Below, piece by piece: positions 34,025 to 54,185 of a stretch of DNA of 54,187 nucleotides. Position 1 is the stretch's first letter. Every line of letters begins with the position of its first letter. This DNA is from Calditrichaceae bacterium (GTDB lineage: Bacteria > Calditrichota > Calditrichia > Calditrichales > JBFXGD01). The notes under the pieces were generated by a model. The model did no database searches. It worked only from the letters and a program-made list of their open reading frames with translations, and had not been told where the DNA came from. The DNA lies in assembly GCA_050178385.1 (NCBI GenBank), contig JBFXGD010000004.1, forward strand, positions 1 to 54,187, read 5' to 3'. Position numbers and translations under genes: made by a program.

Positions 34025-34126
34025 GATACTTCTCCTGTGTTTGTTTGAACAATATTGGGATTACTAAAATCTAAACTCTTTATATTTATTGCTTTCATCT
34101 TAACTGCATTTGTTCATCAATAATTT

Positions 34127-35167: not shown

Positions 35168-35178
35168 CTTCTTGCCCT

Positions 35179-36603: not shown

Positions 36604-36680
36604 TCCTAATCTATCGCAACTTTACCGGATTCCGTCATACAATAAACAAATTCACGCGCGTTAACGCTGTCTGCTGTTAA

Positions 36681-37307
36681 TTACCACTTATAGCGGTTTT
36701 GTTCGATCATTTTTTTGATCTTCTTATCGCCGATCCATACTTTCAGATTCTTCTCGAGGTGAATCAACTCAAGGTTAACCTGATAATAAACGGCTTTCTG
36801 TCCTTCGTAAGAATCCACAATGGTATTAATGCTGCCCTGAAGCATATAATCGGCGCCTGTCTCATTGGCCAGCTGTTTTGCTGTTTCAAGAGATGAAAAA
36901 CTTTGCTGGTCGAGCCGTTCCTTCCGAATTTCTTCACGTTCTTTTTCGGAAGCGACAAAATTGATCTGGCCGGAATTGATTAATTCTTTTTCAATATCTT
37001 TTATGAATAAATCCACCGGAATATGTTCACTGCTTTTATTACGAATGGTTCCTACGATGACCACGGGTTTTTCATCATTCAAATCCACATATTCGAGTAA
37101 CCACGGTTTTGAAAGAACATCACGTATCATAGCTTCCGCTGTAAGACGGGAATCGGTATCATTCCATCGTCCGCTCAGATCCGAAGTTTGATCCGCGGAC
37201 ACACGTGTGACTTTTCGTGAACTCTGGCATTGAATAAGTACCGATGAAAATAAAACCAACATACCGATAATCAGCATTCTAGAGAAAAAACTTCCTGTCT
37301 TTAACAT
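36681..37307 (-). CDS. LpoB-like lipoprotein (CsgG/LpoB fold)
   Basis: LIQC lipobox-like; DLSGRWNDTD, IRNKSSEHI, GADYMLQGSI, YYQVNLEL, KVWIG.K.IKK. Confidence 0.85.
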   Translation of the reverse strand: MLKTGSFFSRMLIIGMLVLFSSVLIQCQSSRKVTRVSADQTSDLSGRWNDTDSRLTAEAMIRDVLSKPWLLEYVDLNDEKPVVIVGTIRNKSSEHIPVDLFIKDIEKELINSGQINFVASEKEREEIRKERLDQQSFSSLETAKQLANETGADYMLQGSINTIVDSYEGQKAVYYQVNLELIHLEKNLKVWIGDKKIKKMIEQNRYKW

Positions 37308-37442
37308 AGTGACCACCTTATAGTTATAATTAGTAAATATTTTCCTGATCTGTATGAAGTTTCATGCTTTTACTCTACAAAAATATCTAAACAAATCCAA
37401 TGAAAATAATTTTATAAGAACGGACTAAGGCAAAAATAGTTT

Positions 37443-39257
37443 CTATTTATATATTTTAAAATTTGCTGTTTTGATCAAAGAGTCTTCATCCCACTCGTTG
37501 GGCTGCCAGGCCCTCACATAAATAAGAGGGTCCTTTTCGGTGAAATCTATCAATAGAAACAGGTATCCTTCATCGGAGTAAGTGGTGGATGAATAGCTTT
37601 GGCGCATTTCCACGCCATAAACCCCCTCGGTACTGTTCTTTTTTATAATGTCAAATGATCCAAAGTTAATAAATATATCCTTTTGAAGATTAAAAATTTG
37701 TTCCTGTCTTTCAAGATAATTCTTTTTTGTCAGTCGTAAATATTCAAAATCAGGCTGATTTGAAAATTTTTGATAATTAACCATATTATCAGGCAACTTC
37801 ACTGAGGCTATTTTACGTCCTACGAGGATAAGCGCTTCATCGGCAAACATTAAATCCACAGTTTCTATCTCACGGGTCTGATAAGCCGTACGATACTTTT
37901 CCACAAATTTAATAATATCCTGTCTGTTTGCCCAATCGTTGCCGTATTCGGCCTGCTCCGAGAAATGCCGGTAGAGATTTTCGGAAATACTAAGATTAAA
38001 ATCGGTTAAATTGCCCGCGTCTGAAAAATCAAGAACTAAATATTCGGTGGATTGCTTTTTAATGGACGGATAACGATGAAGCATACGGATTCTGCGTAAT
38101 TCATAACCGGAAGATGTTTTGAAAATTCCGCCGTCGATATTTTGAGAAGCTGGTTCCGCCGAATTGTATTTAAGGTAGTTGATAATTTTGTTCTTCAGAA
38201 ATGGGTCGTCAGCATATTTTTCACTTATTATTGTTTTATCTTTCATTGAAAGCAGATCTAAAAATTCAGAAGCGGACTTTAAAATAGTCTTGGAGACAGG
38301 AATTTCTTTTTCAAGCGTAAGATTCATATTCCATTTTTTTGATGCGCGGGAAGTCTGAATTTGTCCGGAATTGCCATTCTTTTTTAGATTGACGGTCTTT
38401 GCGGCATTAAATGTCGGCAGATTTACAACATTCCATAGTTCACCGACCACATTATATTCGTTACGTGATTCATAATAAGCATATTTGATGAATAGTTTTA
38501 AGGATTCAAAATTGGTGCTGGCTCCAAGCAGGCGGAAGGTCGCGATTCCGTCTCTTCCTTCCACAGCAACCTGACCTGTCCCATCCCAAAAGGTGAAATC
38601 AATAAGGGATACGTCCACTTCGTTCGAAGTGATACGGAGTGTGATTTCACGCTCCATGTCAGAGATTTTTTTATCACCGGCAAAATTAAATTTTAAATTA
38701 AGAATAATCCTGTTAATACGCGCGGGTAATTCTGTTGTATAATTGATATCCTGATATATAACGCTTTCATCCGGTAATGACTGGACAAGTAAAAGAGCAT
38801 AATAATTCAGTTTTAGCGCGAACGCTGTATTATGATTTAATTCATTTAATTCAGCTTTACGCGCTATATCTGCAATCAGTTTTTTACGTTCATCAAAAAT
38901 TTGGAAAACTTCTTTCTTGTCCAGATAACAAAACGTTTCGATTTCTCCGTTAGGCAGGGCTTTCTTTACGGTGTTGACGTTTTGGAGTGTCGCGGCGCTG
39001 TGAGTGCGTATAATAGATTTCACAGACTCATCGAGTCCGGCGGCGCTCTCCATGATTTTGCTTTCAAATGATTTTGCTACCCGAACGGCGATTTGCTCGG
39101 TCAGCTCTTCCAAAGCGCGATCACGAGATTCCCGGGCGTCACGGGCAGTGCCGGAACCGTAATAATAATTTCCACTCTGCATAATGGATTTTTTGTCAAT
39201 CTGCTGGGCAAAAAGTAATACTGACAACAAAAATGTACTGATGAAAATGATACGCAC
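37443..39257 (-). CDS. Exported protein with an N-terminal LPP20-like domain and a C-terminal NTF2-like region
   Basis: Signal peptide; YYYGSG...RALEELTEQIAVRV; C-terminal FVEKYRTAY...MFADEA...YSDEGYLFLLIDF...IYVRAWQP. Confidence 0.55.
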   Translation of the reverse strand: MRIIFISTFLLSVLLFAQQIDKKSIMQSGNYYYGSGTARDARESRDRALEELTEQIAVRVAKSFESKIMESAAGLDESVKSIIRTHSAATLQNVNTVKKALPNGEIETFCYLDKKEVFQIFDERKKLIADIARKAELNELNHNTAFALKLNYYALLLVQSLPDESVIYQDINYTTELPARINRIILNLKFNFAGDKKISDMEREITLRITSNEVDVSLIDFTFWDGTGQVAVEGRDGIATFRLLGASTNFESLKLFIKYAYYESRNEYNVVGELWNVVNLPTFNAAKTVNLKKNGNSGQIQTSRASKKWNMNLTLEKEIPVSKTILKSASEFLDLLSMKDKTIISEKYADDPFLKNKIINYLKYNSAEPASQNIDGGIFKTSSGYELRRIRMLHRYPSIKKQSTEYLVLDFSDAGNLTDFNLSISENLYRHFSEQAEYGNDWANRQDIIKFVEKYRTAYQTREIETVDLMFADEALILVGRKIASVKLPDNMVNYQKFSNQPDFEYLRLTKKNYLERQEQIFNLQKDIFINFGSFDIIKKNSTEGVYGVEMRQSYSSTTYSDEGYLFLLIDFTEKDPLIYVRAWQPNEWDEDSLIKTANFKIYK

Positions 39258-39550
39258 GCTCTGACTCCATGTTTGAACGCATTAACCTTAAAAGAAAGAA
39301 CCGGTATCTGCTAATTAGTGAAAATTTCTGAATAAATCATTATGAATTTAAACTTTATCAATTTGACTATCCATAGACTTTGATACGGTGTGCAAGAGAA
39401 TATACCATTGAAATATAATCGATTGTGAAATATGAATCAATATTGATTCTATTGCCTTTTGACCTAAGGTAAATATTCTTACAAACCCTAAATGTAAATA
39501 GAAATTAGGCATGCATTTATTCTCTCATCAGATTGGCTGTCTGTCATCGA

Positions 39551-41368
39551 TTACTTTTTATCAGTTGCTTTTTTAGAAGGACCCCCGCCAAACAATATTC
39601 CAAATTGAATATTCGCGCTTTCATTTATATTATGATCATCACGGTATTGTTGATACACAGCCTTCAGAAAAAAATGATAGTCTAACTGAATTCTGAGATC
39701 CGCGTAGTACCCGTAGGTTGTTTGTTTAACTTTATCCACCTGGTCACCATCTATCTCATTATAAAAATAGTTTTCTCCGATAAAAGCACCGGCTGATGGA
39801 TAGAGCGTTTCCCACAAGACAAATGGAGTAAATCCAAGATAGCCGGTCCAGCTATAGGTGGCCAAACTGTCTTTTTCAACCGAAGATGTGTTCAAATCTG
39901 TGGTTTTAAATCTAAAGCTGCCTCCGATCGTAAGGGGATTCAGATAAATGGAAATATCCCCGATGTAGCCGTAGTCATCAAGCGGATCAGATATTTCATT
40001 TGATTGTGTGATTTCGTTCAGCATCTCAGGGGGCAATTGCCAGTAATATCCGCCAAAAGAGATAAGTAACCCGTTGGAAATGTCGGAAATCCGACCATTA
40101 CCAAATGCGGTTAGACGGAAGAAGCGATTTCTTGTTTTGACAAGTTCATACTCGCGTTCCTTTCCTCGTGAATCAATAGAAAAGGATTTGTTTTTTGTAT
40201 CATAACCGTCCTTTTCTATGCGGATTGAATATTTACCGGGATCAAGTTCCATTTCATACATAGGAATAGATCCCCTGTACCGGTCATTGATAAAAATACT
40301 GGCTCCCGAGGTTCCTTTAACTGTGAAGAGACCATTAGGTGAAGGCGCTACACGCAGATTCAGGTCACGATCCCCGGTTACGTCAATATGGAGCGAATCG
40401 GAACGATGGCGACGCTTGCGGGCTTCAAGTTTGTACTGTCCGGCCGGGACTGTCCGCGAAATAGGGGTCGAGCCGATGTAATTGTTATCCAGATAAATCT
40501 CCGTTTCAGGGACTTTGCTGTCAATAATTAAGTTGCCCTCTTTACGAATAAGATTGGCCTGAATCGGTATGGATTTTACCGGATCATCATTCGGTACTAT
40601 TTCCATGGCATAAGTAAAAGGATGATAGTATGGTTTTTCCAGACGCAGAAGAATCCTCCCCTCGGGGACCGCGACCGGCAAATCAGGACTAAACGTGATT
40701 TCTTTATCATTGATAAATAAAAGCGCATCATCATGAGAAAGAGAAATGGTGATATAGCCAAACGTCGGGGTAAGCGTTAGTTCCTGGCTGACAGTTTTAC
40801 CATCCTGAACTTTGATGAACATTTCATGGGTGACATATCCTGCTTTGGTGATAATAAATTTCCATGTCTGAGCGCTCAGATTTTCAAAACGATATGGGCT
40901 AATTCTGTTGAAACCGGGAATTCCGTCGATCTGAATGTTGGCACCTGCGGGATTGGTCGTTAAAAGTAGATGACCTTTTCGAGAATTATACTTTGAATCA
41001 GCGGAAATTTTTATCACGAATACAGCGCGGGGGGCGAGCTGAATGCCCTCTTCCGATAATATAATTTGCTTGGGTTGAAAGCCATTATGGAATACTTCCA
41101 GCACACGTTCATCGGGAGACAAATAAATGATGTCGCGTCCGGGTTGATCATCCACTTTGACTACACCATTATACGCGTCATAACTGAATCCATCCATGTC
41201 GGATATAATACAGATAGCGGCGCAAAACCGGCCGTTTTCGTCTTTTACGCCTGTCATTTCATCTGAAGACTTTTCCGCTTTGCCAACAATTTGAAGTTGA
41301 GAGAGATTTTGAGCCTGAAGATACGCTGAAAATAATATAACAACCAATAACGTCCTTGTCATGAGCAT
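39551..41368 (-). CDS. PEGA domain-containing exported protein
   Basis: Signal peptide; repeated PEGA motifs (TNPAGANIQIDG, ETEIYLDNNYIGSTP...PAGQY, GASIFIND...PGKYSIRIEKDGY); beta-strand-rich C-terminus. Confidence 0.85.
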   Translation of the reverse strand: MLMTRTLLVVILFSAYLQAQNLSQLQIVGKAEKSSDEMTGVKDENGRFCAAICIISDMDGFSYDAYNGVVKVDDQPGRDIIYLSPDERVLEVFHNGFQPKQIILSEEGIQLAPRAVFVIKISADSKYNSRKGHLLLTTNPAGANIQIDGIPGFNRISPYRFENLSAQTWKFIITKAGYVTHEMFIKVQDGKTVSQELTLTPTFGYITISLSHDDALLFINDKEITFSPDLPVAVPEGRILLRLEKPYYHPFTYAMEIVPNDDPVKSIPIQANLIRKEGNLIIDSKVPETEIYLDNNYIGSTPISRTVPAGQYKLEARKRRHRSDSLHIDVTGDRDLNLRVAPSPNGLFTVKGTSGASIFINDRYRGSIPMYEMELDPGKYSIRIEKDGYDTKNKSFSIDSRGKEREYELVKTRNRFFRLTAFGNGRISDISNGLLISFGGYYWQLPPEMLNEITQSNEISDPLDDYGYIGDISIYLNPLTIGGSFRFKTTDLNTSSVEKDSLATYSWTGYLGFTPFVLWETLYPSAGAFIGENYFYNEIDGDQVDKVKQTTYGYYADLRIQLDYHFFLKAVYQQYRDDHNINESANIQFGILFGGGPSKKATDKK

Positions 41369-41789: not shown

Positions 41790-42350
41790 TTACATGGTCT
41801 CGGCGCTCATGGTATCCGGAACCATGGACTCACAGGTTTGTTTCAGATTTTTCAGTCCCTTTTCAAAATCAGGCCCCATCATTTGATCCAGAAAAAGCCC
41901 GAAATAACGTCCGACGGGATAATCCAGTTCACCGACATTGGCCCAGACGACCTGGGTACCGTTCCCCGATGGTCTAAATTCCCATACATCAAATGATTTC
42001 ATCGCCTGAGGCTCAAGAAAGATTAAATCAGATTTAATGGATTTGTTTTCTTCCGCTTCCAGAATGTTCAGATATCCGGTGCCAAGAACTTTTCCTTCCC
42101 ATGCCCATTTAGAGCCTACCCCTTTTCCGGGTCCTGAAATAACGGAATTGGCATCAGGATCCATCGCTGTCCAGGGATTCCAATTTTCCCAGTTTCTAAG
42201 ATCAATAACCTGATTGTAAACAGTGCTTACAGGTTTTTCAATTGAAATGGTCCGTTCAACCCGGTAATCGGAAGGCAGAAAAAGAGCCACAACCAAAAAC
42301 AAAGCGATTATTCCCGCCAGCACATAGAGCGTTAGTTTTAAAATTTTCAT
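41790..42350 (-). CDS. SRPBCC (polyketide cyclase-like) family protein
   Basis: LPSDYRVERTISI, W..WNPW, GVGSKWAW, MGPDFEKGLKNLK; start ATG 42350. Confidence 0.9.
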   Translation of the reverse strand: MKILKLTLYVLAGIIALFLVVALFLPSDYRVERTISIEKPVSTVYNQVIDLRNWENWNPWTAMDPDANSVISGPGKGVGSKWAWEGKVLGTGYLNILEAEENKSIKSDLIFLEPQAMKSFDVWEFRPSGNGTQVVWANVGELDYPVGRYFGLFLDQMMGPDFEKGLKNLKQTCESMVPDTMSAETM

Positions 42351-42504
42351 GATCCCCCCAAAATAAGTTTGAATGACTGACTTATTAACGAACGATGCGC
42401 TAATATTTATTTCGATTATTATTATGTAAATGAGATATGACAGATTGTGAAACACGCATCCGGAAGAAATCGGGGATATGAAATGACATTTTTCCCGTCT
42501 ACAA

Positions 42505-42599
42505 TTCTTACTTCCTACTTCTTACTTAAGGCTAAGGCACTAATTTACTGTTCTTACTCTTTTATCTTTTATCTTTTGTCTTTTTTCTTAATTTCCTAC
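42505..42599. repeat. Degenerate heptamer tandem repeats
   Basis: TTCTTAC-TTCCTAC-TTCTTAC (42505-42525), then TTCTTAC-TCTTTTA-TCTTTTA-TCTTTTG-TCTTTTT-TCTTAAT-TTCCTAC (42551-42599). Confidence 0.6.
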
Positions 42600-43891
42600 T
42601 TCCCTCCGTACCGCTTCATCTCATGACAGCCCGAAAAGCATGTTTTTCCATCTTCGGTTTCAACAAGTCGTACAGGCATTGTCCATTTGCCAAAGGATAC
42701 CTTTCCGGCGATGATATGTTCCTGATCGGAGCCATGCATATCGTGACAAAGCATACAGTTCCGTCCCTTATCCCGATTGACGTGCAGATAATGGAGATTT
42801 TGTTTTTCATCGCTGAAACCGGACGCTTCACTTCCCGTGTCTTCAATAAGCGAGGTCTCATGACAATTGAAACAGACCGCGAAGGATTCCGAATCTCCTG
42901 AAGTATAAGCGCTGTTTGGGAAGTTAGCGTTCAGCAGGGAGGTAAATTCGGATGAATGGGGAAGATGGCAGGCATCACATCCTCCATCCATAGCCGGGGG
43001 ATGGATATATTCTTTTTCTTGCAAACGATTCTTGATTTTTCCAGATCTCGAATACTCAACCGGTAGAGAAGTGTCGTGACATGTAAGACAAAGCTCCTCC
43101 CTCTGCTGATTCAACAATCCATCCACATCGGATGCATGAGCTTTATGACAACTGAGACAGGATCGCTCATCAGCAATTGCTTTATGGATTGAAATATTTT
43201 CAGATTGGTCTTCGTGGCATTCATAGCACTGTCCGGGAACCGGTGTTTTCAGCAGCGACGCGTATTGGGATGTGTGAGTATGATGACAATCAGAACATTC
43301 ACCTTCGTAAGCAGGGTGTACATTACTCAGTGTCAGCTCATCTTTCTGATCATCATGGCAATCGAAGCAAAGCTGCGGTGATTCCTTTCTCAGAAACGCC
43401 GCGAAATCGGATTGATGCGGATTGTGGCAATCTGTGCACTGATTGTTTTCCGCAGGGGGATGATTTACCGCCTTCGGATTATTATACAGATCATGGCATT
43501 TACCGCAAATCTCACCCTGGTCTGCGGCAATCAACAGCGCGGGGTTATTAGAACTGTGAACATCATGACAGGCGGTACATTCACCCGCGACAACCGGCGC
43601 ATGAACATCATCTTTTTCATGTTTTGAGTCATGACAATCATAACATAGGTACGGCATCTCGTTTAAAAGTGAAAATTCTTCGCCCTCCGAACCGGGATGA
43701 ATAAACCCGTTTGATTCGTGACAGGAAGCGCAGTCATCTTCGATGGGTGGATGAATATGTGATCGAACCAGATAGGACCCGTGACAGCCTGACGAGGTGC
43801 AGGATGGCTCCTCTTCCGCCTCCTGAGCAAAAAGAAGAGATTGATGAAAGAATAGTATAACTGTGGTATAAAATATGATCCGAACTGTCAT
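42596..43891 (-). CDS. Periplasmic multiheme c-type cytochrome (about 15 hemes)
   Basis: Signal peptide; 13 CxxCH plus CTSSGCH (Cx4CH) and CFSGCH (Cx3CH); paired HxP..CxxCHxxH / LCxxCH repeats. Confidence 0.92.
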   Translation of the reverse strand: MTVRIIFYTTVILFFHQSLLFAQEAEEEPSCTSSGCHGSYLVRSHIHPPIEDDCASCHESNGFIHPGSEGEEFSLLNEMPYLCYDCHDSKHEKDDVHAPVVAGECTACHDVHSSNNPALLIAADQGEICGKCHDLYNNPKAVNHPPAENNQCTDCHNPHQSDFAAFLRKESPQLCFDCHDDQKDELTLSNVHPAYEGECSDCHHTHTSQYASLLKTPVPGQCYECHEDQSENISIHKAIADERSCLSCHKAHASDVDGLLNQQREELCLTCHDTSLPVEYSRSGKIKNRLQEKEYIHPPAMDGGCDACHLPHSSEFTSLLNANFPNSAYTSGDSESFAVCFNCHETSLIEDTGSEASGFSDEKQNLHYLHVNRDKGRNCMLCHDMHGSDQEHIIAGKVSFGKWTMPVRLVETEDGKTCFSGCHEMKRYGGK

Positions 43892-43901
43892 GAGTTCATC
43901 C

Positions 43902-45869
43902 TTAGAATTTTCTTTCAACGCGCAAAAATCCGGCGTTATATGTTATCTCTTCCCCTGAAAAATCACGCCTGTAGGTTTCCAGCCCCACGGTCAGATACAT
44001 TTGCCTGAAGCGTGTCGTAAATTCACTCCGGAGAGTGGCAAGATTGAGATCAATGCCTCTTCCATCCTGAAAACGGTAGCTTGTTTCCAAACTGATTTTT
44101 GAGATACGGGAAAGACGGTATAAGAACCGGCCGGTGAGATCCCTGAATTTCTGATCTTCTTCATTTTCCGTTAATGAATAATTCCGGATATTTCCTGAGA
44201 GAGAAACATTCAGCCTGTTAAACAAATATCTGTTAAAGGAGATATAATACCGCACTGAATGATACGGAACGATGTTGCTGTTGTAGTCGTCAAGCTCAAC
44301 TCCGCCGGAAACCGGACCTTTGGACAATCGCGTGCCGAAGACTCTCTCAGAAACCGTTTTGAGTACCGCGGAATCCGAGCCCTCAGAATTATGTATATCC
44401 TGTTCGTATGAACGAAAATAGAATTCGGCAATCTGGTTAAAAACGGTTATTCTTACACCGAATGCATTACTGAATATATCGTATTGATATGATGTCTGAA
44501 GTGTCACTGTGTAATCCACCAGAACTTTTGTTCCATCTGCTATCTGACCACCCGGCAGGCGCTGAATTTCCAGAAAATCTCCGCGTATGATTATGATATA
44601 ATCGAGATTTTCCTGATAAGGGACCAATCCGGTTTCATCTGTGACTACTATACTCGCCGGATCTGCATAAGGATTCTCCAGCAATATCGTCTGTCCGTCA
44701 AAAAGCGTAATCGCTTCATTGATGATTCTCGACGCGCTTGGCATGCTGTTGCGATTTTCATTGCGATTTCTGAGCTCGTAGTCGATGGAAAGATTGCCGG
44801 TCGGTATTTTTTTTAAATAATTGAACCCGATGGTGCCGGTATTGGTAAACTGATTGAATCCGCTCTGATTAAGATCGATATACTCATAATGAGCAAAGCT
44901 TCTGAGACTTTGGTACAACTGGTGTTCAATTCTTCCGGAGATATTATGCTGGTCGGAGCTGAAAGCTTTCTGGTCAAATGAAGCAAACCGGTAATCGCCT
45001 GAAAAATCCAGATTATACGGTAAAACAAGTCTGACATTCTCACTGGCTGTCAGCCGGTCAAAGTCTTCGCTTCCGGTCTGATTATAATACCATATCAGCG
45101 AATTGAGATTATAATTCCGGTCTTCATCCAGGAATAAATTATCCCGCAGATTGACGCTTGATATTTTATTGTGTACGGATGAGTTTTGAGCGTATTCACG
45201 TGAATAATCTTCATACGAATAGGTTAAGCGGTGGTCGTCGTAACGGCTGAATGATTTACTGAATTCGGTTCTGAAATTATCCCTGGTATTCACAAAATCA
45301 CGCCCGGTCTGTAATTCCTTCTGTTCCCAGTTCTCATGAGAATAATTAATGCTAACCGGGACTATGTCATTGCGGTACGAGGCACCTCCGCCTATATCTG
45401 TTCTGTAGTTCTCAACATTGGTAAGGTATTCGCGGTTCACATAGCTGTGGCTGAAATTTGTAAATAGGTTAAATGTAAAGGGGCGTTTATTAAAAAATGA
45501 TGTATGGATATTTATTTTTTCACCTGTTTTGGTTTCCGTGCGGTTCGGAACAACCAAAAACTGATCCCGCCGGATCCCGGGATTGAAATCCATATCGGCG
45601 TTTATCACCACAAAATTGGGGTGCCAGACATAGCTTTTTGATCTTAACAGTATCTCTCCGGAAAAAATTGTGGATTCGGGTCTGTCTGATAATCCGGAAG
45701 GATAAACCGTTTCCTGCGAACGGAACTCACTTTCCATAACAACAGAACCGTTTACAGATTGCAGATGCCATTCCCCGATCGAATAAAGATCACCGTCCTG
45801 TCCCGTAGAAGGAGACAGCATCATCAAAATAAGAACCGGCACTAAACCAATTATTTTCCGTGACATCAT
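43902..45869 (-). CDS. Outer-membrane beta-barrel protein (putative cytochrome-conduit porin)
   Basis: Signal peptide, alternating amphipathic beta-strands rich in Y/F/S/N/R, C-terminal Phe (FLRVERKF), flanked by multiheme cytochromes. Confidence 0.8.
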   Translation of the reverse strand: MMSRKIIGLVPVLILMMLSPSTGQDGDLYSIGEWHLQSVNGSVVMESEFRSQETVYPSGLSDRPESTIFSGEILLRSKSYVWHPNFVVINADMDFNPGIRRDQFLVVPNRTETKTGEKINIHTSFFNKRPFTFNLFTNFSHSYVNREYLTNVENYRTDIGGGASYRNDIVPVSINYSHENWEQKELQTGRDFVNTRDNFRTEFSKSFSRYDDHRLTYSYEDYSREYAQNSSVHNKISSVNLRDNLFLDEDRNYNLNSLIWYYNQTGSEDFDRLTASENVRLVLPYNLDFSGDYRFASFDQKAFSSDQHNISGRIEHQLYQSLRSFAHYEYIDLNQSGFNQFTNTGTIGFNYLKKIPTGNLSIDYELRNRNENRNSMPSASRIINEAITLFDGQTILLENPYADPASIVVTDETGLVPYQENLDYIIIIRGDFLEIQRLPGGQIADGTKVLVDYTVTLQTSYQYDIFSNAFGVRITVFNQIAEFYFRSYEQDIHNSEGSDSAVLKTVSERVFGTRLSKGPVSGGVELDDYNSNIVPYHSVRYYISFNRYLFNRLNVSLSGNIRNYSLTENEEDQKFRDLTGRFLYRLSRISKISLETSYRFQDGRGIDLNLATLRSEFTTRFRQMYLTVGLETYRRDFSGEEITYNAGFLRVERKF

Positions 45870-45905
45870 TTTTTACCTTAAAAATGATAAAACTAATCCG
45901 TAAAA

Positions 45906-46466
45906 TTACCTGAATAAATAGGCATCTTCTCCGCCGTGCGGATTATGGCAATCCAGGCAATTTGTGTCGCCCAGATCCTGATGCGCTTCATTTTTGAAAA
46001 CATCCTCGCTCTGATGGCAGAAAAGACATAACTCTTGTCCGGTCCGAACCAGAAGATGCTCATTTTTTGACAAATGCGGATTATGACATTCCGTACAAAA
46101 TCCGGCGCCCACCGGTCCATGTAGCGCCTCGTAATTCCCGCTGAAGTCTTCATGGCACTGATAGCAAAGTCCCGGCTGTTCATCGATCAGGGCGTTTCCT
46201 TTTTCGGGAACATGGCAGGCATCACATGATTTTTCGGCATAAACCGGGTGGATTGTCATTTTCGGGCGATCGGATTTTGGAGAAACAGGAATACCTGAAT
46301 CATTGACGGTTACCGAGACCGTATCCATGGTCACCGATTGTTTCGCTTCAGGATCCGGCACTCCGTCAAAAAATGTCGAGAGTACTTTATGACGGCTTTC
46401 AGGATGACAAGCAACCAAAAGCGCGATGGCCGCCAGCAGAAAGATGAAAGTAATATGAGTTCGCAA
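45906..46466 (-). CDS. Pentaheme c-type cytochrome lipoprotein
   Basis: LVAC lipobox, FFDGVP motif, 5 CxxCH (CDACH, CYQCH, CTECH, CLFCH, CLDCH); TTG start. Confidence 0.88.
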   Translation of the reverse strand: MRTHITFIFLLAAIALLVACHPESRHKVLSTFFDGVPDPEAKQSVTMDTVSVTVNDSGIPVSPKSDRPKMTIHPVYAEKSCDACHVPEKGNALIDEQPGLCYQCHEDFSGNYEALHGPVGAGFCTECHNPHLSKNEHLLVRTGQELCLFCHQSEDVFKNEAHQDLGDTNCLDCHNPHGGEDAYLFR

Positions 46467-46540
46467 GGCTGTTCCCTGAAATTTGGTTTAGGAACAATTA
46501 TTCAGACAATACATTGTTCTCGGTTATAAGCCGTTAAATG

Positions 46541-47614
46541 TTATTCCTTCACGTCAACAAATCCGTAAACGTTGATCTTATCCGGCCCGTACTGATTGGT
46601 CACAAAAATCAGATATTGTAATTCAAATCCGGGATGAACATATTTTCGAAAATACTCAAGATTATCATAATCTATTACTACTTTGGCGGGCAGCCACATA
46701 TCACCGGGGCCTTTGTAACTGCCACCGAAAAACATCAGTAATTGATCTTCTTCATTAAAAAGCTGGACATTTTCAAAACCGGCGTCAACTACGAATAAAT
46801 TGGATTGTTTATCCACCGATATTCCTTTTGGACGTACAAATTGCCCCGCGTTTTTTCCGTAGCTGCCTATCGAACGCAGAAATTCACCTTCAGTTGAAAA
46901 TACCTTTATCCGGAAATCACCGAAATCACTCACATAAACCTGATTGTTTTTTACAAAAAGATTTGTCGGGGAGTAGAGGTTGCTCTCTCCGGTATTTTCA
47001 TCATCGGCAGGGATCGACCGTATCAGTTTGTGGTCTTCTTTTGAAAACGCCAGAATCTTATGGCTTTTTATATCGCTGATCCAAATTAGCTCATCGGTTA
47101 CAAAAACATCAGTTGGCCTCTCGATGTCACTACTGCCGAAACTGTTAACAAATTTGCCGTTTTCATCAAAAATGACGATATCGCCTCTTTCCGAATCAGC
47201 CACATAAACCAGTCCGTCAACATCCACAAAACAGTTGATCGGTTTCTTGAGCTGACCCTTTCCGGCCGGTTTCAGATAATCAAATGAACGGGTGTTCAGA
47301 TCGATGATTTCGAGACCGCCAAGCATCGTGTCACAGACATAAATTCTGCCGCGATATATAGCCAGTCCGTAGGGTTTGACGATTGACCGGCTTTCATCTT
47401 CACCCAGCACATACCGGGCAAACGCGGATCGCCGCCCGGTGATGTCGCTTGAGCTGCTGATACGGGTTAAAAACTGAATTCTCGTCGTTGCCGGAGGTGC
47501 GGGGTAGATGACGACATTATCATCATTGACAGGCTTATTGAATGACCTGCTGCATGAAATAGTCATCATTACCATAAGAAAAGACACTACACTTAACTGA
47601 AATAATTTCTTCAT
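46541..47614 (-). CDS. NHL-repeat beta-propeller lipoprotein
   Basis: TISC lipobox; YPAPPATTRIQF; NHL repeats (GQFVRPKGISVD..NLFVVD, PGDMWLPA). Confidence 0.88.
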   Translation of the reverse strand: MKKLFQLSVVSFLMVMMTISCSRSFNKPVNDDNVVIYPAPPATTRIQFLTRISSSSDITGRRSAFARYVLGEDESRSIVKPYGLAIYRGRIYVCDTMLGGLEIIDLNTRSFDYLKPAGKGQLKKPINCFVDVDGLVYVADSERGDIVIFDENGKFVNSFGSSDIERPTDVFVTDELIWISDIKSHKILAFSKEDHKLIRSIPADDENTGESNLYSPTNLFVKNNQVYVSDFGDFRIKVFSTEGEFLRSIGSYGKNAGQFVRPKGISVDKQSNLFVVDAGFENVQLFNEEDQLLMFFGGSYKGPGDMWLPAKVVIDYDNLEYFRKYVHPGFELQYLIFVTNQYGPDKINVYGFVDVKE

Positions 47615-47703
47615 CGAATTACACTCATATTCAGTATATTGAATTCACAATCCGTCTGGATTAACCGTTTAGCTCCGCCGCGGCGAATGTTATCATCCTT
47701 GAT

Positions 47704-48327
47704 TTATTTATTATGACAAGTCAGGCACAGGGCGCTCGATGAATTAGAGATTACGAGAAGTTTGCTGAAACCCTGGCTGTTATGAACATCATGACAGGAA
47801 GCGCACTGCACTTTGCCGCCGATTAACAGATCGTTGCTGATGGTTCCGCCCATGCCTGAATTCGCGGTGGAAGGATCATACAATCCACCGTCTGAATTTG
47901 CCAGCGCGGCGTCGTATGTGAATGAAACCGGATGATCATCACTAAGATCGGTACCTACAAGGCTGTTTCCTGTGATAAAATGGCTTCCACCTGTCTGCCC
48001 GCCGTAATTGTCAACGGCTATTGTACCGTCGTGACAGCTCATACAAAGTTTTGATGAGGCATCCGGCTGACCCACAGTGGCGTTCATGGACGCGCTGCTG
48101 TATGGAGTGAATGTGGCGGAGGTCATCTCATGATTCCATAGCGGGGCGTCACTGACAGATACATCGGCATTGTGAGTGGTGTGGCAGACGATGCAGATCT
48201 GGTCACTTGTATTCCAGGCGGCGGATGAAAAATCGTGTGCAGACCCAACAATGGACTGAGCGAACGCGCTACCGCCGATCATAAAGAATAAAATCACGGC
48301 CAGGTTAAAAATTGATAATCGTTTCAT
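47704..48327 (-). CDS. Tetraheme c-type cytochrome, OmcE-like (putative nanowire subunit)
   Basis: Signal peptide AFA-QS; SI..S.HDFS, QICIVCHTTHNA, PLWN, LCMSCHDG, GTDLSDDHPVSF, VQCASCHDVH, LCLTCHNK terminus. Confidence 0.85.
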   Translation of the reverse strand: MKRLSIFNLAVILFFMIGGSAFAQSIVGSAHDFSSAAWNTSDQICIVCHTTHNADVSVSDAPLWNHEMTSATFTPYSSASMNATVGQPDASSKLCMSCHDGTIAVDNYGGQTGGSHFITGNSLVGTDLSDDHPVSFTYDAALANSDGGLYDPSTANSGMGGTISNDLLIGGKVQCASCHDVHNSQGFSKLLVISNSSSALCLTCHNK

Positions 48328-48375
48328 GACTGTTCCTTTCAATTGTTTGTTTTTACAATATGAAAAAAATTCCTG

Positions 48376-50070
48376 CTAATAAGTTTTTGGGTTATGATCT
48401 TCACCATGACATACAAGGTAACACGTGCCTCTGGTAGTCCCCTGATCAATAAATTCCAACCGCGTACCGGAGGGAAAAACAACGGATATATCAAAATTAA
48501 TAAGATGTGTATTGTTGGTCGTGTTCCCCTGTAAACTACTGATACCGTGAGGATCATGGCAGACATTGCAGGGGGTATCTTCTGCAACAATATGTCTCCA
48601 GTGGACTTTTCTTGCGAAACTTCCTGAGCTGTTTATAATTGTGTTACGGTCATGGCATTCATAACATAACCTGTAGTTGTCATAGGATTCCGTTGTATAA
48701 TCCGCTGTGACATACTGAAATTTCAATATCTGTGGATATATGGATCCGTGAGGTCCTGCCGGAGCATCCGTGCCGTCACTGGCATGGCAATTTGTACAGT
48801 AAATGATGCTGGAGGCGGTATAGGGTGATATCATTGAATTAACGTTTGGATTTTTTCCGGCCGCTTCGATCGGGTGATAAGAGGGATTCCCCGGATCATA
48901 CTCGAGACGTACATTAGATTGTTCAATCAATCTGATGGTCGGGCTGCCGGGTTTATCAGGACTGTCGGCATGGCATTTATAGCAAAGTTCGTATTGATAT
49001 TGTACCGGATCGACCGCTGTTCCGTTTGTGTTTAATCCGCTTGTGCCGGCAATGAATCCGTTGGCGTTTGGCGCGCTGGCAGCAGCGCTTCTGCTGGCAT
49101 GGGGGTTGTGACAGTCTTCGCACTCCACATGCCTGTTTTGAACAGGAATATTTTCTCCCGGATCGTGAACGCCGGCATAGTTATAAACATCATGAATATA
49201 TGGTTTGGTGGCAACAATTGTCTGAATGTTTTTAGCGGCGACATTCCCGTTATGACAGTCGAGACAGTTGTTCTCTTCAGTGAGTGAATTCAACAGACGG
49301 TCATGACTCTCTGAGTTGTGTGGATTATGACAGTTTTCACAGCCGTTTTCCGCCACATTCGTGTAGGGTGTATGAAACCATGGATCGTTGCCGGAACCGT
49401 TCCACGTCGCGATCGAATTTTTGTGTGATGAATTGGTCCAGTCAGTTTTCTGATGACAATAGAGACAAAGATCAGAATTTTGATTAGTAGCAACCAGAAA
49501 TTGTCCGTATAAATCAATATGCGGGTCATGGCAGGAAGTGCACTGAACGCGCTCGTTTGCCAGTTTAACCGGTCCGGTAAGAACGGCGGGATCGCTTAGT
49601 TCACCGTCCGCGGCGGATAAAGCGGAATTATACAAAAATGATACCGGGTGATCATCCGATAAATCAGTGGATAAATTTTTATTTCCCGATGGCATCATGG
49701 TAATTCCGCCGGTGAATTCAATGGGAGCCGGCCTACTTAAAACATTACCAAGAGCGATGGTTCCGTCATGACAGGAAAGACACAACAGGGAAGCGCCGTC
49801 CGGCTGACCGGGTGACGCCTGAGCGGTGGAACTGCCGTAAATTGTATAGGTTAATCCGGGATCTTCACGATTCCATAAGGGTTGCCGTGGGCTGCTTTTA
49901 TGCGGAGTATGACAAAAAACACAGATTTCAGATTCACTGCTGGCTTTAACCGTTCCTGGCCCGGTGGCGGATAAATTATGAACCGAATTCACAATTGATT
50001 GTGATAACGTGAAACAGGGAATCATCAACAGAAAGGTAAAAGTAATCAGTAACTTATTTTTCATCGTCAT
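48376..50070 (-). CDS. Multiheme c-type cytochrome (about 12 hemes) with an N-terminal OmcE-like module
   Basis: Signal peptide; 11 CxxCH plus CYLVCH; the first four hemes sit in a module collinear with the downstream tetraheme protein. Confidence 0.9.
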   Translation of the reverse strand: MTMKNKLLITFTFLLMIPCFTLSQSIVNSVHNLSATGPGTVKASSESEICVFCHTPHKSSPRQPLWNREDPGLTYTIYGSSTAQASPGQPDGASLLCLSCHDGTIALGNVLSRPAPIEFTGGITMMPSGNKNLSTDLSDDHPVSFLYNSALSAADGELSDPAVLTGPVKLANERVQCTSCHDPHIDLYGQFLVATNQNSDLCLYCHQKTDWTNSSHKNSIATWNGSGNDPWFHTPYTNVAENGCENCHNPHNSESHDRLLNSLTEENNCLDCHNGNVAAKNIQTIVATKPYIHDVYNYAGVHDPGENIPVQNRHVECEDCHNPHASRSAAASAPNANGFIAGTSGLNTNGTAVDPVQYQYELCYKCHADSPDKPGSPTIRLIEQSNVRLEYDPGNPSYHPIEAAGKNPNVNSMISPYTASSIIYCTNCHASDGTDAPAGPHGSIYPQILKFQYVTADYTTESYDNYRLCYECHDRNTIINSSGSFARKVHWRHIVAEDTPCNVCHDPHGISSLQGNTTNNTHLINFDISVVFPSGTRLEFIDQGTTRGTCYLVCHGEDHNPKTY

Positions 50071-51073
50071 CCTTGTTTGTCAGTTCAAACATCTGTATTC
50101 TCGCGTTATAGCTGTCTGCTACATAGATGCGGTCATGGTGATCAATAAAAATTCCGGAGGGAAGCCAGAATTCACCATGCCCCCGGCCCTGTTTCCCGAA
50201 ATAGGAGAGAAAATTTCCTTCTTTATCGAAAATCTGGACTGTATGAAATAGCCCGTCAACCACATAAATATGTCCGCGCGAGTCAGTAGCGATACCTTTC
50301 GGGGATGAAAAATACCCGCTGGCGTCTCCTGCTTCGCCAAAAATATTAACGAGCTCACCGGTTTTATTAAAAACCTGAATCCTGAAATTCATTGAGTCAA
50401 CGATATACACATTACCAATATCATCGATCGTGAGAAAAGTGGGAAAATTGAATTCACCGGCTCCGGTGCCCCGGTGTCCGATGGTCCTCAGCAAATTGCC
50501 CTCTTTGTCCAATACCTGAATTCGGTGCTTCCCGGTTTCCGCCACCCAGATTTCATTAGTTAAATCGGAAAAACCGATTCCCGTCGGCCTGTCAATTTTT
50601 AATGATGGATTTAATAATCCTGATTTTCCCGATGTAATATTTTGTATGTAAATTTGATTGATTTTTGAATCGGTAAGAAGCAGTGAATATGAATTAAACC
50701 TGCACATGCAGATAAGTGACGGAAAACCGGATTGATTATTCTGATAGTAATTTTTGATCTGACCTGAATTTTGATCAATAAATATCAGCGTCTTTGACCC
50801 CTGATCCAGCACCCAGATGGAATCAGGATTCTCCGTGAAAACAGAAACCGGTCTTATTAACGGGCGGAAATCATTTCCAAAAATAAAATTGAACATTAAT
50901 TTGGCGAAACCGGGTTTAGCCTTCAAATCTTCGGATGATGAAAACTGTCCCGTCCATTTAACGGTGCGGTAATCGGAGTCAGATGTAACGGACTGATTCT
51001 CGGCCGCCATGTTCAGCACCGGTAATAAAATCAGAATGGTAAGTGATACGATCCAAAAATTCCGTTTTATCAA
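50054..51073 (-). CDS. NHL-repeat beta-propeller exported protein
   Basis: NHL repeats (GEFNFPT, VYIVDSMNFRIQVF, FSSPKGIATDSRGHIYVVD, GEFWLPSGIFID); probable TTG start at 51073 with aggga RBS. Confidence 0.9.
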   Translation of the reverse strand: MIKRNFWIVSLTILILLPVLNMAAENQSVTSDSDYRTVKWTGQFSSSEDLKAKPGFAKLMFNFIFGNDFRPLIRPVSVFTENPDSIWVLDQGSKTLIFIDQNSGQIKNYYQNNQSGFPSLICMCRFNSYSLLLTDSKINQIYIQNITSGKSGLLNPSLKIDRPTGIGFSDLTNEIWVAETGKHRIQVLDKEGNLLRTIGHRGTGAGEFNFPTFLTIDDIGNVYIVDSMNFRIQVFNKTGELVNIFGEAGDASGYFSSPKGIATDSRGHIYVVDGLFHTVQIFDKEGNFLSYFGKQGRGHGEFWLPSGIFIDHHDRIYVADSYNARIQMFELTNKDDDEK

Positions 51074-51333
51074 AACCAATTCCCTATAATTACAGTGAAT
51101 CCAGCCATGTGAAAAAATATACATATTTGGTCCGAAAATCAACTTAATCATCAAAAAGCAAATAACCAATGTAAGATAATGGCTTTGTTCAGCCCTTGTA
51201 TGTGCTCTATATCAATTTCTGATTTTATATCTGTGTATCAAAAATATTCAGTGACATTGAAGATATAAAAATATTTTGCGGTAGAAAATGATTATTTAAA
51301 AAAGTTGTACGGGTAGGGAAAAAGAGAAAATCA

Positions 51334-51414
51334 TAACCCGCGCGGGGAGTTGACCGAACAAAAACAGGTATTTGTTTAAGAAAACGGTCCGGTCAATGCT
51401 CCCGCGTCAGGTTA
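51334..51414. repeat. Imperfect GC-rich inverted repeat upstream of the cytochrome operon
   Basis: Arms TAACCCGCGCGGGGAGTTGACCGAAC (51334-51359) and GTCCGGTCAATGCTCCCGCGTCAGGTTA (51387-51414). Confidence 0.55.
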
Positions 51415-51464
51415 ATGGGATTTATTGACGGGTCTATATGTTCCGACATGTCAATGAAATGAAA

Positions 51465-51890
51465 TTATTTCATCATTGCCTTCTTGAGCATGCTGAGATT
51501 TTCACGTTCCTGAGCCGCCCTGCCCGCAAAGCTTTCCAGAGCCGTAACTTTCCATTTTAACACACCCCACGCGGGGATACTTCGTATGATCTTATCCACT
51601 TCGCTGTTGGAAGAAGCCTCCACTATAAACATGAATGCCCGGTCTCCTACCGCAAGGCCTCCGGAGATGATCTTCTTTTCGGCCTCAAGTTTCATTAAAA
51701 CGTTAAACGTGGGCAGGATACCTTTTTCCAGAACCTGTATGCCTTCTTCCGGCGATGTGTAGCCAGGCCCATCCGATCCAACAACAAGGTATAAATTACT
51801 ACCGGTAGCCGGCATTTTCGGCTGAGCAAATGCGGATAGGCTGAATCCAAATACAACTAATGCGAATATCACCATGATTTGCTTCTTCAT
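51465..51890 (-). CDS. Exported small protein, muconolactone-isomerase/dimeric alpha-beta barrel-like
   Basis: Signal peptide AFA-QP; FIVEASSNSEVDKIIRSIPAW..KWKVTAL pattern. Confidence 0.55.
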   Translation of the reverse strand: MKKQIMVIFALVVFGFSLSAFAQPKMPATGSNLYLVVGSDGPGYTSPEEGIQVLEKGILPTFNVLMKLEAEKKIISGGLAVGDRAFMFIVEASSNSEVDKIIRSIPAWGVLKWKVTALESFAGRAAQERENLSMLKKAMMK

Positions 51891-52247
51891 GATTTTTCCC
51901 CCCTCATGAATGAATGGTTAAATGAATTAATTAGATGAAAAGAACGATGTACAATTTTTGAACTTCGCACTCGAATATGGCGGCTTATAAATTGGTCTGA
52001 AATAGACTGATTTGATCGAATCAAATATATCAACTGTATTATACAACCAATATTTTCTTGTTTTCATACCGACTAATTATATTTTTCCAGGAATCCGAAG
52101 ACGCGGAAAATAATTGTGAGACTAACGCTGTAAAAACGGACAGTTGAATTTACTATGCAAAATGTAATAGCGCCGATCAAGAAAAGTAACAAGATTTAAA
52201 CAAGGCAGGAGAATAATTCTGTGGAATGATATCTAATTATGAAATCA

Positions 52248-54185
52248 TCAGTCCCTGCGCAACCGGTTAATCTGATCGACGTCTCCGAGCACCAGAAGAC
52301 GATCTCCGGGCTTAATCACATAATCCGGAGTCGGTATGGTGCCCGGACGACCGGGAATGCCGGCTCCCGATGTGGTTGGTTTGCGGATAAGGATCACCTC
52401 AAGTCCGTAATGGGAGCGGATATTGATTTCACGAATGGTGCGTCCTATAAAGCTGTATGGAGGTTCCACCTCCGCCAGCCGGTATCCATCAGTTAGTTCC
52501 ACTTCGCGTTCATCCTGCACGGCAGTCACCACGCTGTGCATACCTCCGGCCAGATCCCATTTGAATATTTCCCTATTGTAGGCGTCAATAATATCTTTTC
52601 GCTGGACTGACCCGATCAGTTTTTTTGATTCCCTGCTCTCAATGACGGGCAGTTCATCCACATTATAACGGCCAAACGAATGCATCACTAAATCCAGATT
52701 ATCATCAGGATACAAGCATGTCGGGGGTGGATGGGCAATATCAGAAGCGATAACCAGTTCGGCGAGGTATGATTCATCCTTTAAAAACTCTTTTAATTCA
52801 AGGATGGAAATCGTCCCTACCAGTTCTTCCTTTTTGTTTATCACAAAGTATTCCTGGTGCATGCTCCGCATCATACAGCGGATCAGCTCGTTGAATGAAT
52901 CATTAGCAGGAACCGTTTCTATATCTTGCTTCAAAACATCCCTGACGGCTAACCCGCGCAGGATGTTGATATCCCGGCCTTCGAAGATATTAATTCCCCG
53001 CCGCGCCAGTTTCATGGTGTAAATGGATTCTCGTTTTAGATAGGTGGCAATAAGAACCGAGATAATACATGAGACCATTAGAGGGGGAATGATATGATAA
53101 TCGTTTGTCAGTTCAAAAATAATCAGGATGGCGGTGATGGGTGCGTGGGTTGTACCGGCCACCAGGGCGCCCATTCCTACAAGAGCATAAGCGCCCGCAT
53201 CCGCTGTGATTGCCGGATACATAAGATGCACTTCTTTTCCGATCAGACTGCCCAGCATGGCTCCGATAAAGAGCGACGGCGCGAAAATACCGCCTGAACC
53301 GCCGGAGCCGAGCGTGGCCGATGTGGCGGCAATCTTTAAAAATATCAACCCTCCGAGCAGCAGGCGTACATCCCGGCCCCAGAGAGCGTCATTTATCGAT
53401 TCGTATCCGACACCGTAAACCTGCGGAAAGCCAAGGGCAATGACACCAACTATCAGACCGCCGACAGCGGGTTTCAGATATCCGGGGATGTTTAGTTTTT
53501 CAAAAATATCCTGACTTTTATAAAGCGAATGAATAAACAAAACAGCAATCAATCCCGCCAATATTCCAAGTATGGTATAGGGTATAAATTCATACGAACT
53601 GACGATGTTGTAGGACGGAACCCGGAATGCGGGAAAGTCTCCTATATAATGTCGTGAAATAACGGTGGCGACCACGGATGAAATGACGATCGGGCTGAAG
53701 GCCGGCACCGCAAAGTCACCAAGAATAATTTCAACGGCGAACAGCGCTCCGGCGATAGGCGCGTTAAAAGTCGCGGCGATCCCGGCCGCCGCGCCGCAGG
53801 CCACAAAAGTGCGGAGACGCCGGGCGGAAACAGCAAGAAACTGTCCAAAAGCCGAACCGATGGCTGAACCAATATGAACTATCGGTCCTTCACGTCCTGC
53901 CGATCCACCGGAACCGATGGTAATTGCGGCTGCAAGGGCTTTAGCTATCACGACCCGAGGTCGAATGCTGCCGCCGTGAATGGCAACCGATTCCATTACT
54001 TCCGGGATGCCGCTGCCTTTCACCTCGCGGGCGATAAAATGAACAATGGGACCGACAATAAGCCCGCCGAGAACCGGAATGCCCAGTTTTTGCCACCAGC
54101 TAAGCCCGCTTACCCAGTCAAGAGAATAGATATCCGTCTGAAAAAAGGCGTGATGGGTAATTTTAATAAGATAGCGGAAGAAAAT
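52248..54185 (-). CDS. ClC chloride channel/antiporter with CBS pair and TrkA-C domain (5' end outside the window)
   Basis: GSGIP, GREGP, GIFAP, SIY motifs; CBS pair; C-terminal IGRTIRE...PTPDYVIKPGDRLLVLG; frame stays open to the window edge. Confidence 0.93.
   Translation of the reverse strand: MFFRYLIKITHHAFFQTDIYSLDWVSGLSWWQKLGIPVLGGLIVGPIVHFIAREVKGSGIPEVMESVAIHGGSIRPRVVIAKALAAAITIGSGGSAGREGPIVHIGSAIGSAFGQFLAVSARRLRTFVACGAAAGIAATFNAPIAGALFAVEIILGDFAVPAFSPIVISSVVATVISRHYIGDFPAFRVPSYNIVSSYEFIPYTILGILAGLIAVLFIHSLYKSQDIFEKLNIPGYLKPAVGGLIVGVIALGFPQVYGVGYESINDALWGRDVRLLLGGLIFLKIAATSATLGSGGSGGIFAPSLFIGAMLGSLIGKEVHLMYPAITADAGAYALVGMGALVAGTTHAPITAILIIFELTNDYHIIPPLMVSCIISVLIATYLKRESIYTMKLARRGINIFEGRDINILRGLAVRDVLKQDIETVPANDSFNELIRCMMRSMHQEYFVINKKEELVGTISILELKEFLKDESYLAELVIASDIAHPPPTCLYPDDNLDLVMHSFGRYNVDELPVIESRESKKLIGSVQRKDIIDAYNREIFKWDLAGGMHSVVTAVQDEREVELTDGYRLAEVEPPYSFIGRTIREINIRSHYGLEVILIRKPTTSGAGIPGRPGTIPTPDYVIKPGDRLLVLGDVDQINRLRRD

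Follow-up and report, generated by a model that had tools for sequence, protein, structure and literature searches.

Solved OmcE-type cytochromes polymerize, with one heme of each subunit being completed by a histidine (His) of the adjacent subunit (PMC9473688, PMC12307469, PMC12954529, PMC13712944). In OmcE of Geobacter sulfurreducens (7TFS) the recipient of that His is heme 2 (PMC12203936), and 9YUQ is the OmcE bundle of Desulfuromonas soudanensis (PMC13712944); experimentally solved OmcE wires come from two bacterial genera only. In Geobacter and Desulfuromonas, OmcE serves the reduction of external acceptors, and the Uet cluster of Candidatus Tenderia electrophaga has been proposed to serve electron uptake (PMC10734462; bioRxiv 10.1101/2022.05.06.490989). 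Here we describe a tetraheme c-type cytochrome of 207 amino acids (aa) from a Calditrichaceae bacterium (phylum Calditrichota; assembly GCA_050178385.1), encoded on contig JBFXGD010000004.1, of which positions 1 to 54,187 were analyzed (54,187 nucleotides (nt), hereafter the window). By sequence and predicted fold the protein is an OmcE homologue; it is encoded in a conserved seven-gene module, and many copies of it probably make up an extracellular heme wire.

G. sulfurreducens OmcE, whose filament has a rise of 34 Å, and the window protein are of similar length and agree in the order of their four CxxCH motifs, in four extra His, in stopping right after the last motif and in fold, and both genes lie between propeller genes and adjoin multiheme cytochromes. 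OmcE differs in its longer loops (232 residues, against 207 here), in an identity of only ~37%, and in carrying Arg at the position of H66. Many Geobacter omcE clusters contain glycosylation genes (PMC13712944), whereas none were seen in the window module, which shares the minimal pattern without such genes with the D. soudanensis cluster (PMC13712944). The OmcE of D. soudanensis WTL, a bundled nanowire, is matched over its full length with all ligands aligned, but belongs to another phylum. OmcS (6EF8), a hexaheme nanowire, works on the same principle, its bis-His hemes forming an insulated chain in which the neighbor's His completes one heme; it is unrelated in sequence or fold, and it appeared in Foldseek only as a non-significant match (E 0.56) to the model of the 564-aa cytochrome encoded next to the window protein. 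Five-heme OmcE-like proteins (PMC13712944, section 9) belong to the same family, whereas the window protein has exactly four motifs and is therefore of the insulated type.

The Uet cluster (uetABCDEFGHIJ) shares with the window, by description and leaving aside the periplasmic carriers, a tetraheme protein (UetA), a cytochrome with eleven CxxCH (undecaheme UetJ), two NHL propellers (UetH and UetI) and a large barrel (the 28-strand UetC) in one cluster (bioRxiv 10.1101/2022.05.06.490989). Its triheme c7 proteins (UetD, UetE and UetG), cupredoxin (UetF) and prolyl isomerase (UetB) are particular to Uet; in their place the window encodes a pentaheme lipoprotein together with a 13-motif cytochrome, and no Pfam family of c7 triheme, cupredoxin or prolyl isomerase type was found among the module genes or their neighbors. 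The word OmcE is absent from the Uet preprint, the two papers found to name both OmcE and undecaheme draw no link between them, and none of the 120 listed relatives of a gammaproteobacterial homologue was named Tenderia. On these parts lists, the cluster proposed for electron uptake (Uet) and the nanowire cluster of omcE appear to be modules of a single kind.

A tetraheme homologue of OmcE

The open reading frame (ORF) lies on the minus strand, which the sequence-only reading that first drew attention to this gene had left unstated. In the ORF list it spans 47704..48342 from a TTG codon and 47704..48327 from an ATG codon; the ATG start at 48327 is the likelier one because a GGA-rich purine stretch, read by eye as ribosome-binding, lies ~6 nt 5′ of it. 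The predicted signal peptide of the 207-aa precursor ends between SAFA and QSIV (−3/−1 rule applied by eye rather than by a predictor), and a helix covers the N-terminal residues 3-17 of the structural model. The sequence-only reading had described a tetraheme protein of about 185 mature residues with four CxxCH motifs, stopping right after the last. This description holds: the predicted mature protein has 184 residues, the four motifs are confirmed in the DNA, and 2 residues follow motif 4. Besides the four motif His, the protein has six others, making ten in all. Four of them, H31 (in AHDF), H52 (TTHN), H132 (DDHP) and H182 (DVHN), had been named as candidate distal ligands and are conserved across the family; H66 (WNHE) and H116 (GSHF) were missing from that list.

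A phmmer search against 177,635 PDB sequences (matches at E ≤ 10) returned three matches, namely 7tfs_A, the G. sulfurreducens OmcE filament (E 8.6e-28, 100.9 bits, query 10-207 against chain 10-232), 9yuq_N (E 1.3e-23, query 17-207), and NrfB (E 1.2 over 35 residues, not significant). Given an E-value of 8.6e-28 against a collection of this size, the sequence resemblance to OmcE is not due to chance. A comparison with OmcE had been called for in the sequence-only reading, with low similarity named as a ground for abandoning the idea; what was found is a significant full-length match. The order of motifs that had been given for OmcE was likewise confirmed at each residue by the HMMER alignment, in which 7tfs_A reads dqicvfchtphna, plwn, tftlyssssmn, cmschdg, gtdlsndhpv, cgschkvh and lclgchkk.

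An AlphaFold2 (AF2) model, computed without hemes from an alignment of 76 diverse relatives, reached a predicted local distance difference test (pLDDT) of 90.8 and a predicted template modeling (TM) score (pTM) of 0.81. Foldseek against PDB (E ≤ 10) returned 7tfs as the single match, with probability 1.00, TM scores of 0.66/0.67 and 37% identity over 204 columns, and the modeled fold is that of OmcE, mostly coil around a four-heme core. Above the Pfam cut-offs were only generic paired-CxxCH and c7 models, and the NCBIfam scan gave no specific family. Sequence and modeled fold together identify the 207-aa protein as a true OmcE homologue.

The alignment of 76 relatives was also used for column conservation, revealing no variation in the four CxxCH motifs, H132 or H182 and a conservation of at least 90% for H31 and H52. 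Each of these four His aligns with a His in the 7tfs and 9yuq chains, and a conserved set of non-motif His for bis-His ligation is an OmcE trait in PMC13712944 (section 7). Counts were also made by class over 141 OmcE-like modules from 85 loci, among them 80 stand-alone modules, 5 orthologues of G. sulfurreducens OmcE (GsOmcE) and 53 fused modules (Table 1). H66 and H116 are not conserved family-wide; the counterpart of H66 is Arg in 5/5 GsOmcE orthologues and 39/53 fused modules, and H66 may contact a heme propionate. The C-terminus is fixed, ending exactly 2 residues past the last CxxCH in 84 of the 85 stand-alone relatives.

Table 1. Modules retaining each non-motif His of the window protein, by class
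Residue	Stand-alone	GsOmcE orthologues	Fused
H31	77/80	5/5	52/53
H52	73/80	5/5	53/53
H66	70/80	0/5	8/53
H116	12/80	0/5	0/53
H132	80/80	5/5	53/53
H182	79/80	5/5	53/53

Five CxxCH motifs occur in 11 of the 85 stand-alone relatives and six in one, matching the five-heme variants of PMC13712944. Several loci (L010, L008, L002, L058 and others) have two to four adjoining stand-alone OmcE-like paralogues.

A conserved seven-gene module and its spread

The gene belongs to a module of seven same-strand genes at 42596-51169 (Table 2), transcribed in the order NHL propeller, 564-aa cytochrome, OmcE-like gene, NHL propeller, pentaheme lipoprotein, 655-aa protein and 440-aa cytochrome. These limits were set because relatives of the genes flanking the module beyond both ends (ClC channel, 141-aa ORF, SRPBCC protein, PEGA protein and LpoB) were found in 0 of 78 related loci, and relatives of the 440-aa cytochrome in 53 to 55 of them, depending on the length filter. 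Two gene pairs overlap, each by 17 nt: the first propeller gene with the start of the 564-aa gene, and the 655-aa gene, at its end, with the start of the 440-aa gene. Near the OmcE-like gene lie two NHL propeller genes and the gene of a 655-aa protein homologous to its Geobacteraceae counterpart, a putative barrel. Neighboring genes for propellers and large outer-membrane proteins are the context by which PMC13712944 recognizes nanowire-capable homologues, and the window parts list agrees with the minimal omcE cluster described there (section 8).

The 655-aa protein had no Pfam family and no PDB sequence match at E ≤ 5. A weak Atlas lead pointed to Porin_4 (0.89), and its relatives occupy the same position in 49 of the 78 loci, including Geobacteraceae clusters. 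The 440-aa cytochrome has, by eye, an additional CX4CH near its N-terminus and a CX3CH near its C-terminus.

A scan of one genome per species gave at least 497 confirmed relatives among at least 600 matched stretches, of which 78 loci were kept, many of them truncated at contig ends. By title they come from Calditrichota, Bacteroidota, Ignavibacteriota, Chlorobiota, Gemmatimonadota, Pseudomonadota, Verrucomicrobiota, Planctomycetota, Acidobacteriota, Spirochaetota, Sumerlaeota, Nitrospirota, Myxococcota, Thermodesulfobacteriota and, in one case, Bacillota (Frackibacter). The C-terminal part of the 564-aa protein was found in 56/78 loci, the 655-aa protein in 49/78, at least one NHL gene in 68/78 and two NHL genes in 41/78; the whole set was present in 31/78, or 23/38 among loci of at least 16 kilobases (kb). 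The family is very large: proteins of similar length numbered 5113 at E ≤ 1e-3 in a collection clustered at 90%, and 50%-identity clusters numbered 5151 at E ≤ 1e-3 and 516 at E ≤ 1e-30. The nearest relatives are 93% and 92% identical and some further ones 64-70%, with the labels Calditrichaceae, Calditrichia or Calditrichaeota; of the top two, the 92% relative is labeled. Homologues also occur in relatives labeled Caldithrix abyssi and Ignavibacterium album.

The host genome (3.89 Mb, 94% complete) is cytochrome-rich, with 25 ORFs containing at least four CxxCH and three cytochrome-assembly family matches, and it encodes only two OmcE-like modules, one of them stand-alone. Further multiheme clusters lie at C7:13832-22008 and C84:7412-10788, and ORFs with 19, 20 and 22 CxxCH are present.

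Likely OmcE homologues have been reported in five phyla (Thermodesulfobacteriota, Pseudomonadota, Aquificota, Campylobacterota and Nitrospirota), together with PSI-BLAST matches in "diverse phyla" and a set of predicted OmcE-like proteins numbering over 500 (PMC13712944); a wide distribution of OmcE is therefore already recognized. Calditrichota is not among the five phyla named, although the homologue lists of that paper may include it. Our literature search found no paper combining OmcE with "Calditrich...", and among the matches listed for "cytochrome nanowire" with Calditrichota, Ignavibacteri... or Bacteroidota a single one names cytochrome nanowires and, judging from its title, concerns Geobacter. 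The window holds a complete, well-conserved module in a phylum without described wires. Its presence in Calditrichota and in many other phyla suggests that OmcE-type long-range electron transfer may be far more widespread, and in anoxic sediments and landfills such wires may exceed what cultures would lead one to expect.

Fetched Geobacteraceae regions (genomes G011, G016, G018, G025, G026, G028, G037, G049 and G056) contain three arrangements, which we name types I to III. Type I (L039, L088, L089 and L091) has the six core genes of the window in a different order, including the fused gene of the 564-aa type. Type II (L084, L086, L092, L094 and L095) consists of two cytochromes, a propeller, the OmcE-like gene and a propeller, with no fused 12-heme cytochrome within 18-20 kb around omcE. 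Type III (L085 and L087) has a propeller followed by a split form of the fused cytochrome, in which an OmcE-like protein of ~300 aa and a C-terminal part of ~380 aa are encoded separately, at a Geobacteraceae locus of its own. Against 7tfs, the OmcE-like gene product of L084 reaches 212.7 bits, which places G. sulfurreducens OmcE in type II; the window cluster is type I. In the family of a Geobacter metagenome-assembled genome, the 564-aa protein was matched in 28 of 61 sampled genomes.

The relationships of the modules were examined in a quick, unrooted IQ-TREE search of 141 rows, with support from the Shimodaira-Hasegawa-like approximate likelihood ratio test (SH-aLRT) only and five long branches flagged. 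The fused modules (53 fused and 2 split forms), which come from many phyla, form one separate clade (SH-aLRT 98), the OmcE orthologues form a clade (99) nested within the stand-alone proteins, and the window protein groups with stand-alone Calditrichota proteins (96). The 207-aa protein therefore falls on the OmcE side.

Table 2. Positions of the module genes and of the features of the OmcE-like gene in the window
Feature	Position	Strand	Evidence
OmcE-family tetraheme c-type cytochrome precursor, 207 aa (stop codon included)	47704..48327	-	ORF, phmmer, AF2, Foldseek
Predicted signal peptide, residues 1-23, cleavage between AFA and QS	48259..48327	-	sequence by eye
H31 codon (mature His8), conserved N-terminal His, candidate ligand for neighboring subunit	48235..48237	-	conservation; donation inferred
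Heme motif 1 CIVCH, aa 45-49	48181..48195	-	base-by-base; invariant in 76-sequence alignment
H52 codon, distal-His candidate after motif 1	48172-48174	-	sequence
H66 codon (PLWNH)	48130-48132	-	sequence
Heme motif 2 CMSCH, aa 95-99	48031..48045	-	base-by-base; invariant
H132 codon (DDHP), conserved distal His	47932..47934	-	conservation counts
Paired heme motifs 3 and 4 with H182	47713..47805	-	Pfam Paired_CXXCH_1, E 2.9e-11
Heme motif 3 CASCH, aa 175-179	47791-47805	-	base-by-base
Heme motif 4 CLTCH, aa 201-205	47713-47727	-	base-by-base
NHL-repeat beta-propeller, maximal ORF 371 aa	50054..51169	-	Pfam NHL E 1.1e-22; 6-bladed propeller DUF5128 E 1.4e-17
564-aa cytochrome, 12 heme motifs (11 CxxCH and CxxxCH)	48376..50070	-	ORF, alignment
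H216 codon of the 564-aa cytochrome, invariant His 9 residues past last CxxCH of the N-terminal module	49423-49425	-	alignment
NHL-repeat beta-propeller, 357 aa, probable lipoprotein (MTISC lipobox by eye)	46541..47614	-	Pfam NHL E 1.3e-12; DUF5128 E 1.1e-12
Pentaheme cytochrome, 186 aa, probable lipoprotein (LLVAC by eye)	45906..46466	-	five CxxCH; Paired_CXXCH_1 E 2.4e-23
655-aa secreted protein, C-terminal Phe, putative large outer-membrane beta-barrel	43902..45869	-	related loci; Atlas
440-aa multiheme cytochrome, 13 CxxCH, last gene of module	42596..43918	-	motif count

Downstream of the module, on the same strand, the stretch 31354-41368 contains envelope genes, namely genes for a PEGA-domain protein, LpoB-like and LPP20-like lipoproteins, CarboxypepD_reg-domain proteins and several ORFs without a family; these genes are not conserved beside the module in the 78 related loci. 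Scans of 42000-52300 gave no usable signal either for promoters (29 promoter-like sites, against 23.9 ± 4.7 in shuffled sequences) or for terminators (13 terminator-like sites, against 9.3 ± 3.1).

Filament subunit or conduit end-piece

The sequence-only reading proposed that the protein polymerizes into a conductive filament, and the results support this as far as they reach. The 207-aa protein is probably a Sec-exported member of the OmcE family and the small subunit that is repeated along an extracellular heme wire. Its hemes would be attached by the cytochrome-maturation system of the host, and the 655-aa putative barrel and the two NHL propellers may aid its crossing of the outer membrane. 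Subunits would then stack head to tail, with one His per subunit completing a heme of the neighbor and the four bis-His hemes of successive subunits forming one continuous insulated chain, which the 13-motif, pentaheme and 12-heme cytochromes of the module may feed or drain. Homology and context suggest surface export, polymerization and conductivity; electrons may flow in either direction. The junction lengths given below, along with the arrangement in OmcS, suggest that the N-terminal His (the counterpart of H31) is the one donated.

Several points weigh against this proposal. The filament is inferred for this protein, rather than seen in experiment or prediction, and identity to the solved subunits is only ~37%. 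The window cluster, with its fused 12-heme cytochrome, is of another type than that of G. sulfurreducens omcE, and the barrel fold of the 655-aa protein remains putative. Among the data sets listed as containing the module none is RNA, and those of DNA are landfill and other metagenomes. Finally, four hemes with four conserved distal His could be satisfied inside a monomer, and the Uet authors model their tetraheme protein as the surface partner of a porin-cytochrome conduit, with polymers only possible (bioRxiv 10.1101/2022.05.06.490989). A complex prediction with two mature copies and four hemes, run without controls, gave a score of 0.06 (mark 0.42) and counts neither for nor against binding.

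The possible monomer and the Uet model favor a non-polymerizing surface cytochrome, the extracellular end-piece of a Uet-type conduit. One or a few copies of it would dock on the barrel and the 12-heme cytochrome and exchange electrons with minerals, in either direction, without building a long filament. Such a conduit is the model for the cluster of Ca. Tenderia electrophaga, which has the same kinds of parts (bioRxiv 10.1101/2022.05.06.490989; PMC10734462), and the host genome has a single stand-alone copy of the gene. We regard this arrangement as possible but rather unlikely: both experimentally solved family members are filaments, the fixed C-terminus (84/85) together with the conserved N-terminal His arm is hard to explain in a free monomer, and the tandem fusions described below show modules made for head-to-tail succession.

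A periplasmic electron shuttle of the cytochrome c3 or NrfB kind, as implied by the public annotation of close relatives ("cytochrome c3 family protein") and by weak matches of heme motifs 3 and 4 to Pfam and NCBIfam models of c3, c7 and NrfB, is very improbable, as the c3 models stay under their cut-offs (PF14537, 23.3 vs 25; PF02085, 15.1 vs 22.9) and the NrfB models of NCBIfam far under theirs, the NrfB match in PDB is the short, non-significant one given above, Foldseek returned no c3 or NrfB structure at E ≤ 10, and the gene context is an outer-membrane module.

The fused 564-aa cytochrome and tandem modules

Residues 1-208 of the 564-aa cytochrome constitute a paralogous OmcE-like module with 40% identity to the 207-aa protein (E 3e-44), which keeps all eight ligands. 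In an alignment of 54 relatives, the 11 CxxCH motifs, the CxxxCH motif and 12 non-motif His are all invariant, and 51 of the 53 fused relatives have 11 CxxCH. The AF2 model (pLDDT 81.7, low over residues 21-140) finds a fold in PDB through the N-terminal module alone, which matches 7tfs (TMt 0.61); for the C-terminal 350 residues, Foldseek against PDB returned nothing significant.

The N-terminal module matches 7tfs_A with E 4.8e-32 and 114.7 bits, outscoring the 207-aa protein (100.9 bits). It was considered on this ground as the OmcE orthologue of the window, a candidacy rejected by the quick, unrooted tree. The same score and the retention of all eight ligands would also suit a filament whose subunit is the 564-aa cytochrome, polymerizing through its OmcE-like module with eight hemes as side chains and leaving the 207-aa protein an accessory role. 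This we consider highly unlikely, as the fused clade stands apart from the OmcE orthologues, both solved filaments are built of stand-alone proteins of ~200 aa, and the extension begins at the very point at which a stand-alone subunit has to stop.

In the fused proteins, the first His beyond the module (H216 in the window) follows the last CxxCH of that module at a distance of exactly 9 residues in 50 of the 53 fused relatives, 10 in two and 0 in one. Comparable spacings were found in tandem OmcE-like proteins of two to four modules: P0241 (1400 aa, with a long non-heme C-terminal region), P0242 (965 aa), P0243 (459 aa) and P0259 (594 aa). Counted between the final CxxCH of one module and the N-terminal His of the following one, their junctions are 9, 9, 17, 8, 8 and 8 residues, that is, 8 or 9 in five of six and 17 in the other. 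The equivalent spacing between stand-alone subunits, a 2-residue tail plus a 7-residue mature arm, is also 9. The tandem proteins look like covalently pre-assembled pieces of wire. We read these spacings as the mark of a His arm that opens a module and would be placed next to the end of the preceding one, with the extension of the fused protein apparently supplying an arm of its own.

The proposal that the 207-aa protein is a wire subunit can be extended, tentatively and with considerable doubt, to the 564-aa cytochrome as a cluster-encoded end subunit: its N-terminal module would join the filament, H216 would replace the His of the missing subunit, and the other eight hemes would extend the chain to the barrel or a mineral. 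A simpler alternative is that H216 is merely the distal ligand of the fifth heme of this cytochrome. The tally of 12 invariant His for 12 hemes, plus three near-invariant ones, does not discriminate between these roles. PMC13712944 reports finding no OmcE-like candidate with nine His or extra hemes in omcE operons, and the fused cytochrome of type I clusters fits, on paper, the protein sought there. It is a specific, testable candidate for the anchor or tip of OmcE-type filaments; the end-subunit model, if true, would explain in concrete terms how cytochrome nanowires of many phyla begin, or how they are anchored or capped.

The fused form also occurs in Candidatus Frackibacter sp. WG13 (L055; Bacillota, Halobacteroidaceae), the sole locus outside the classical Gram-negative phyla. 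This locus encodes an OmcE-like protein and a fused cytochrome of 703 aa, which is the first branch of the fused clade.

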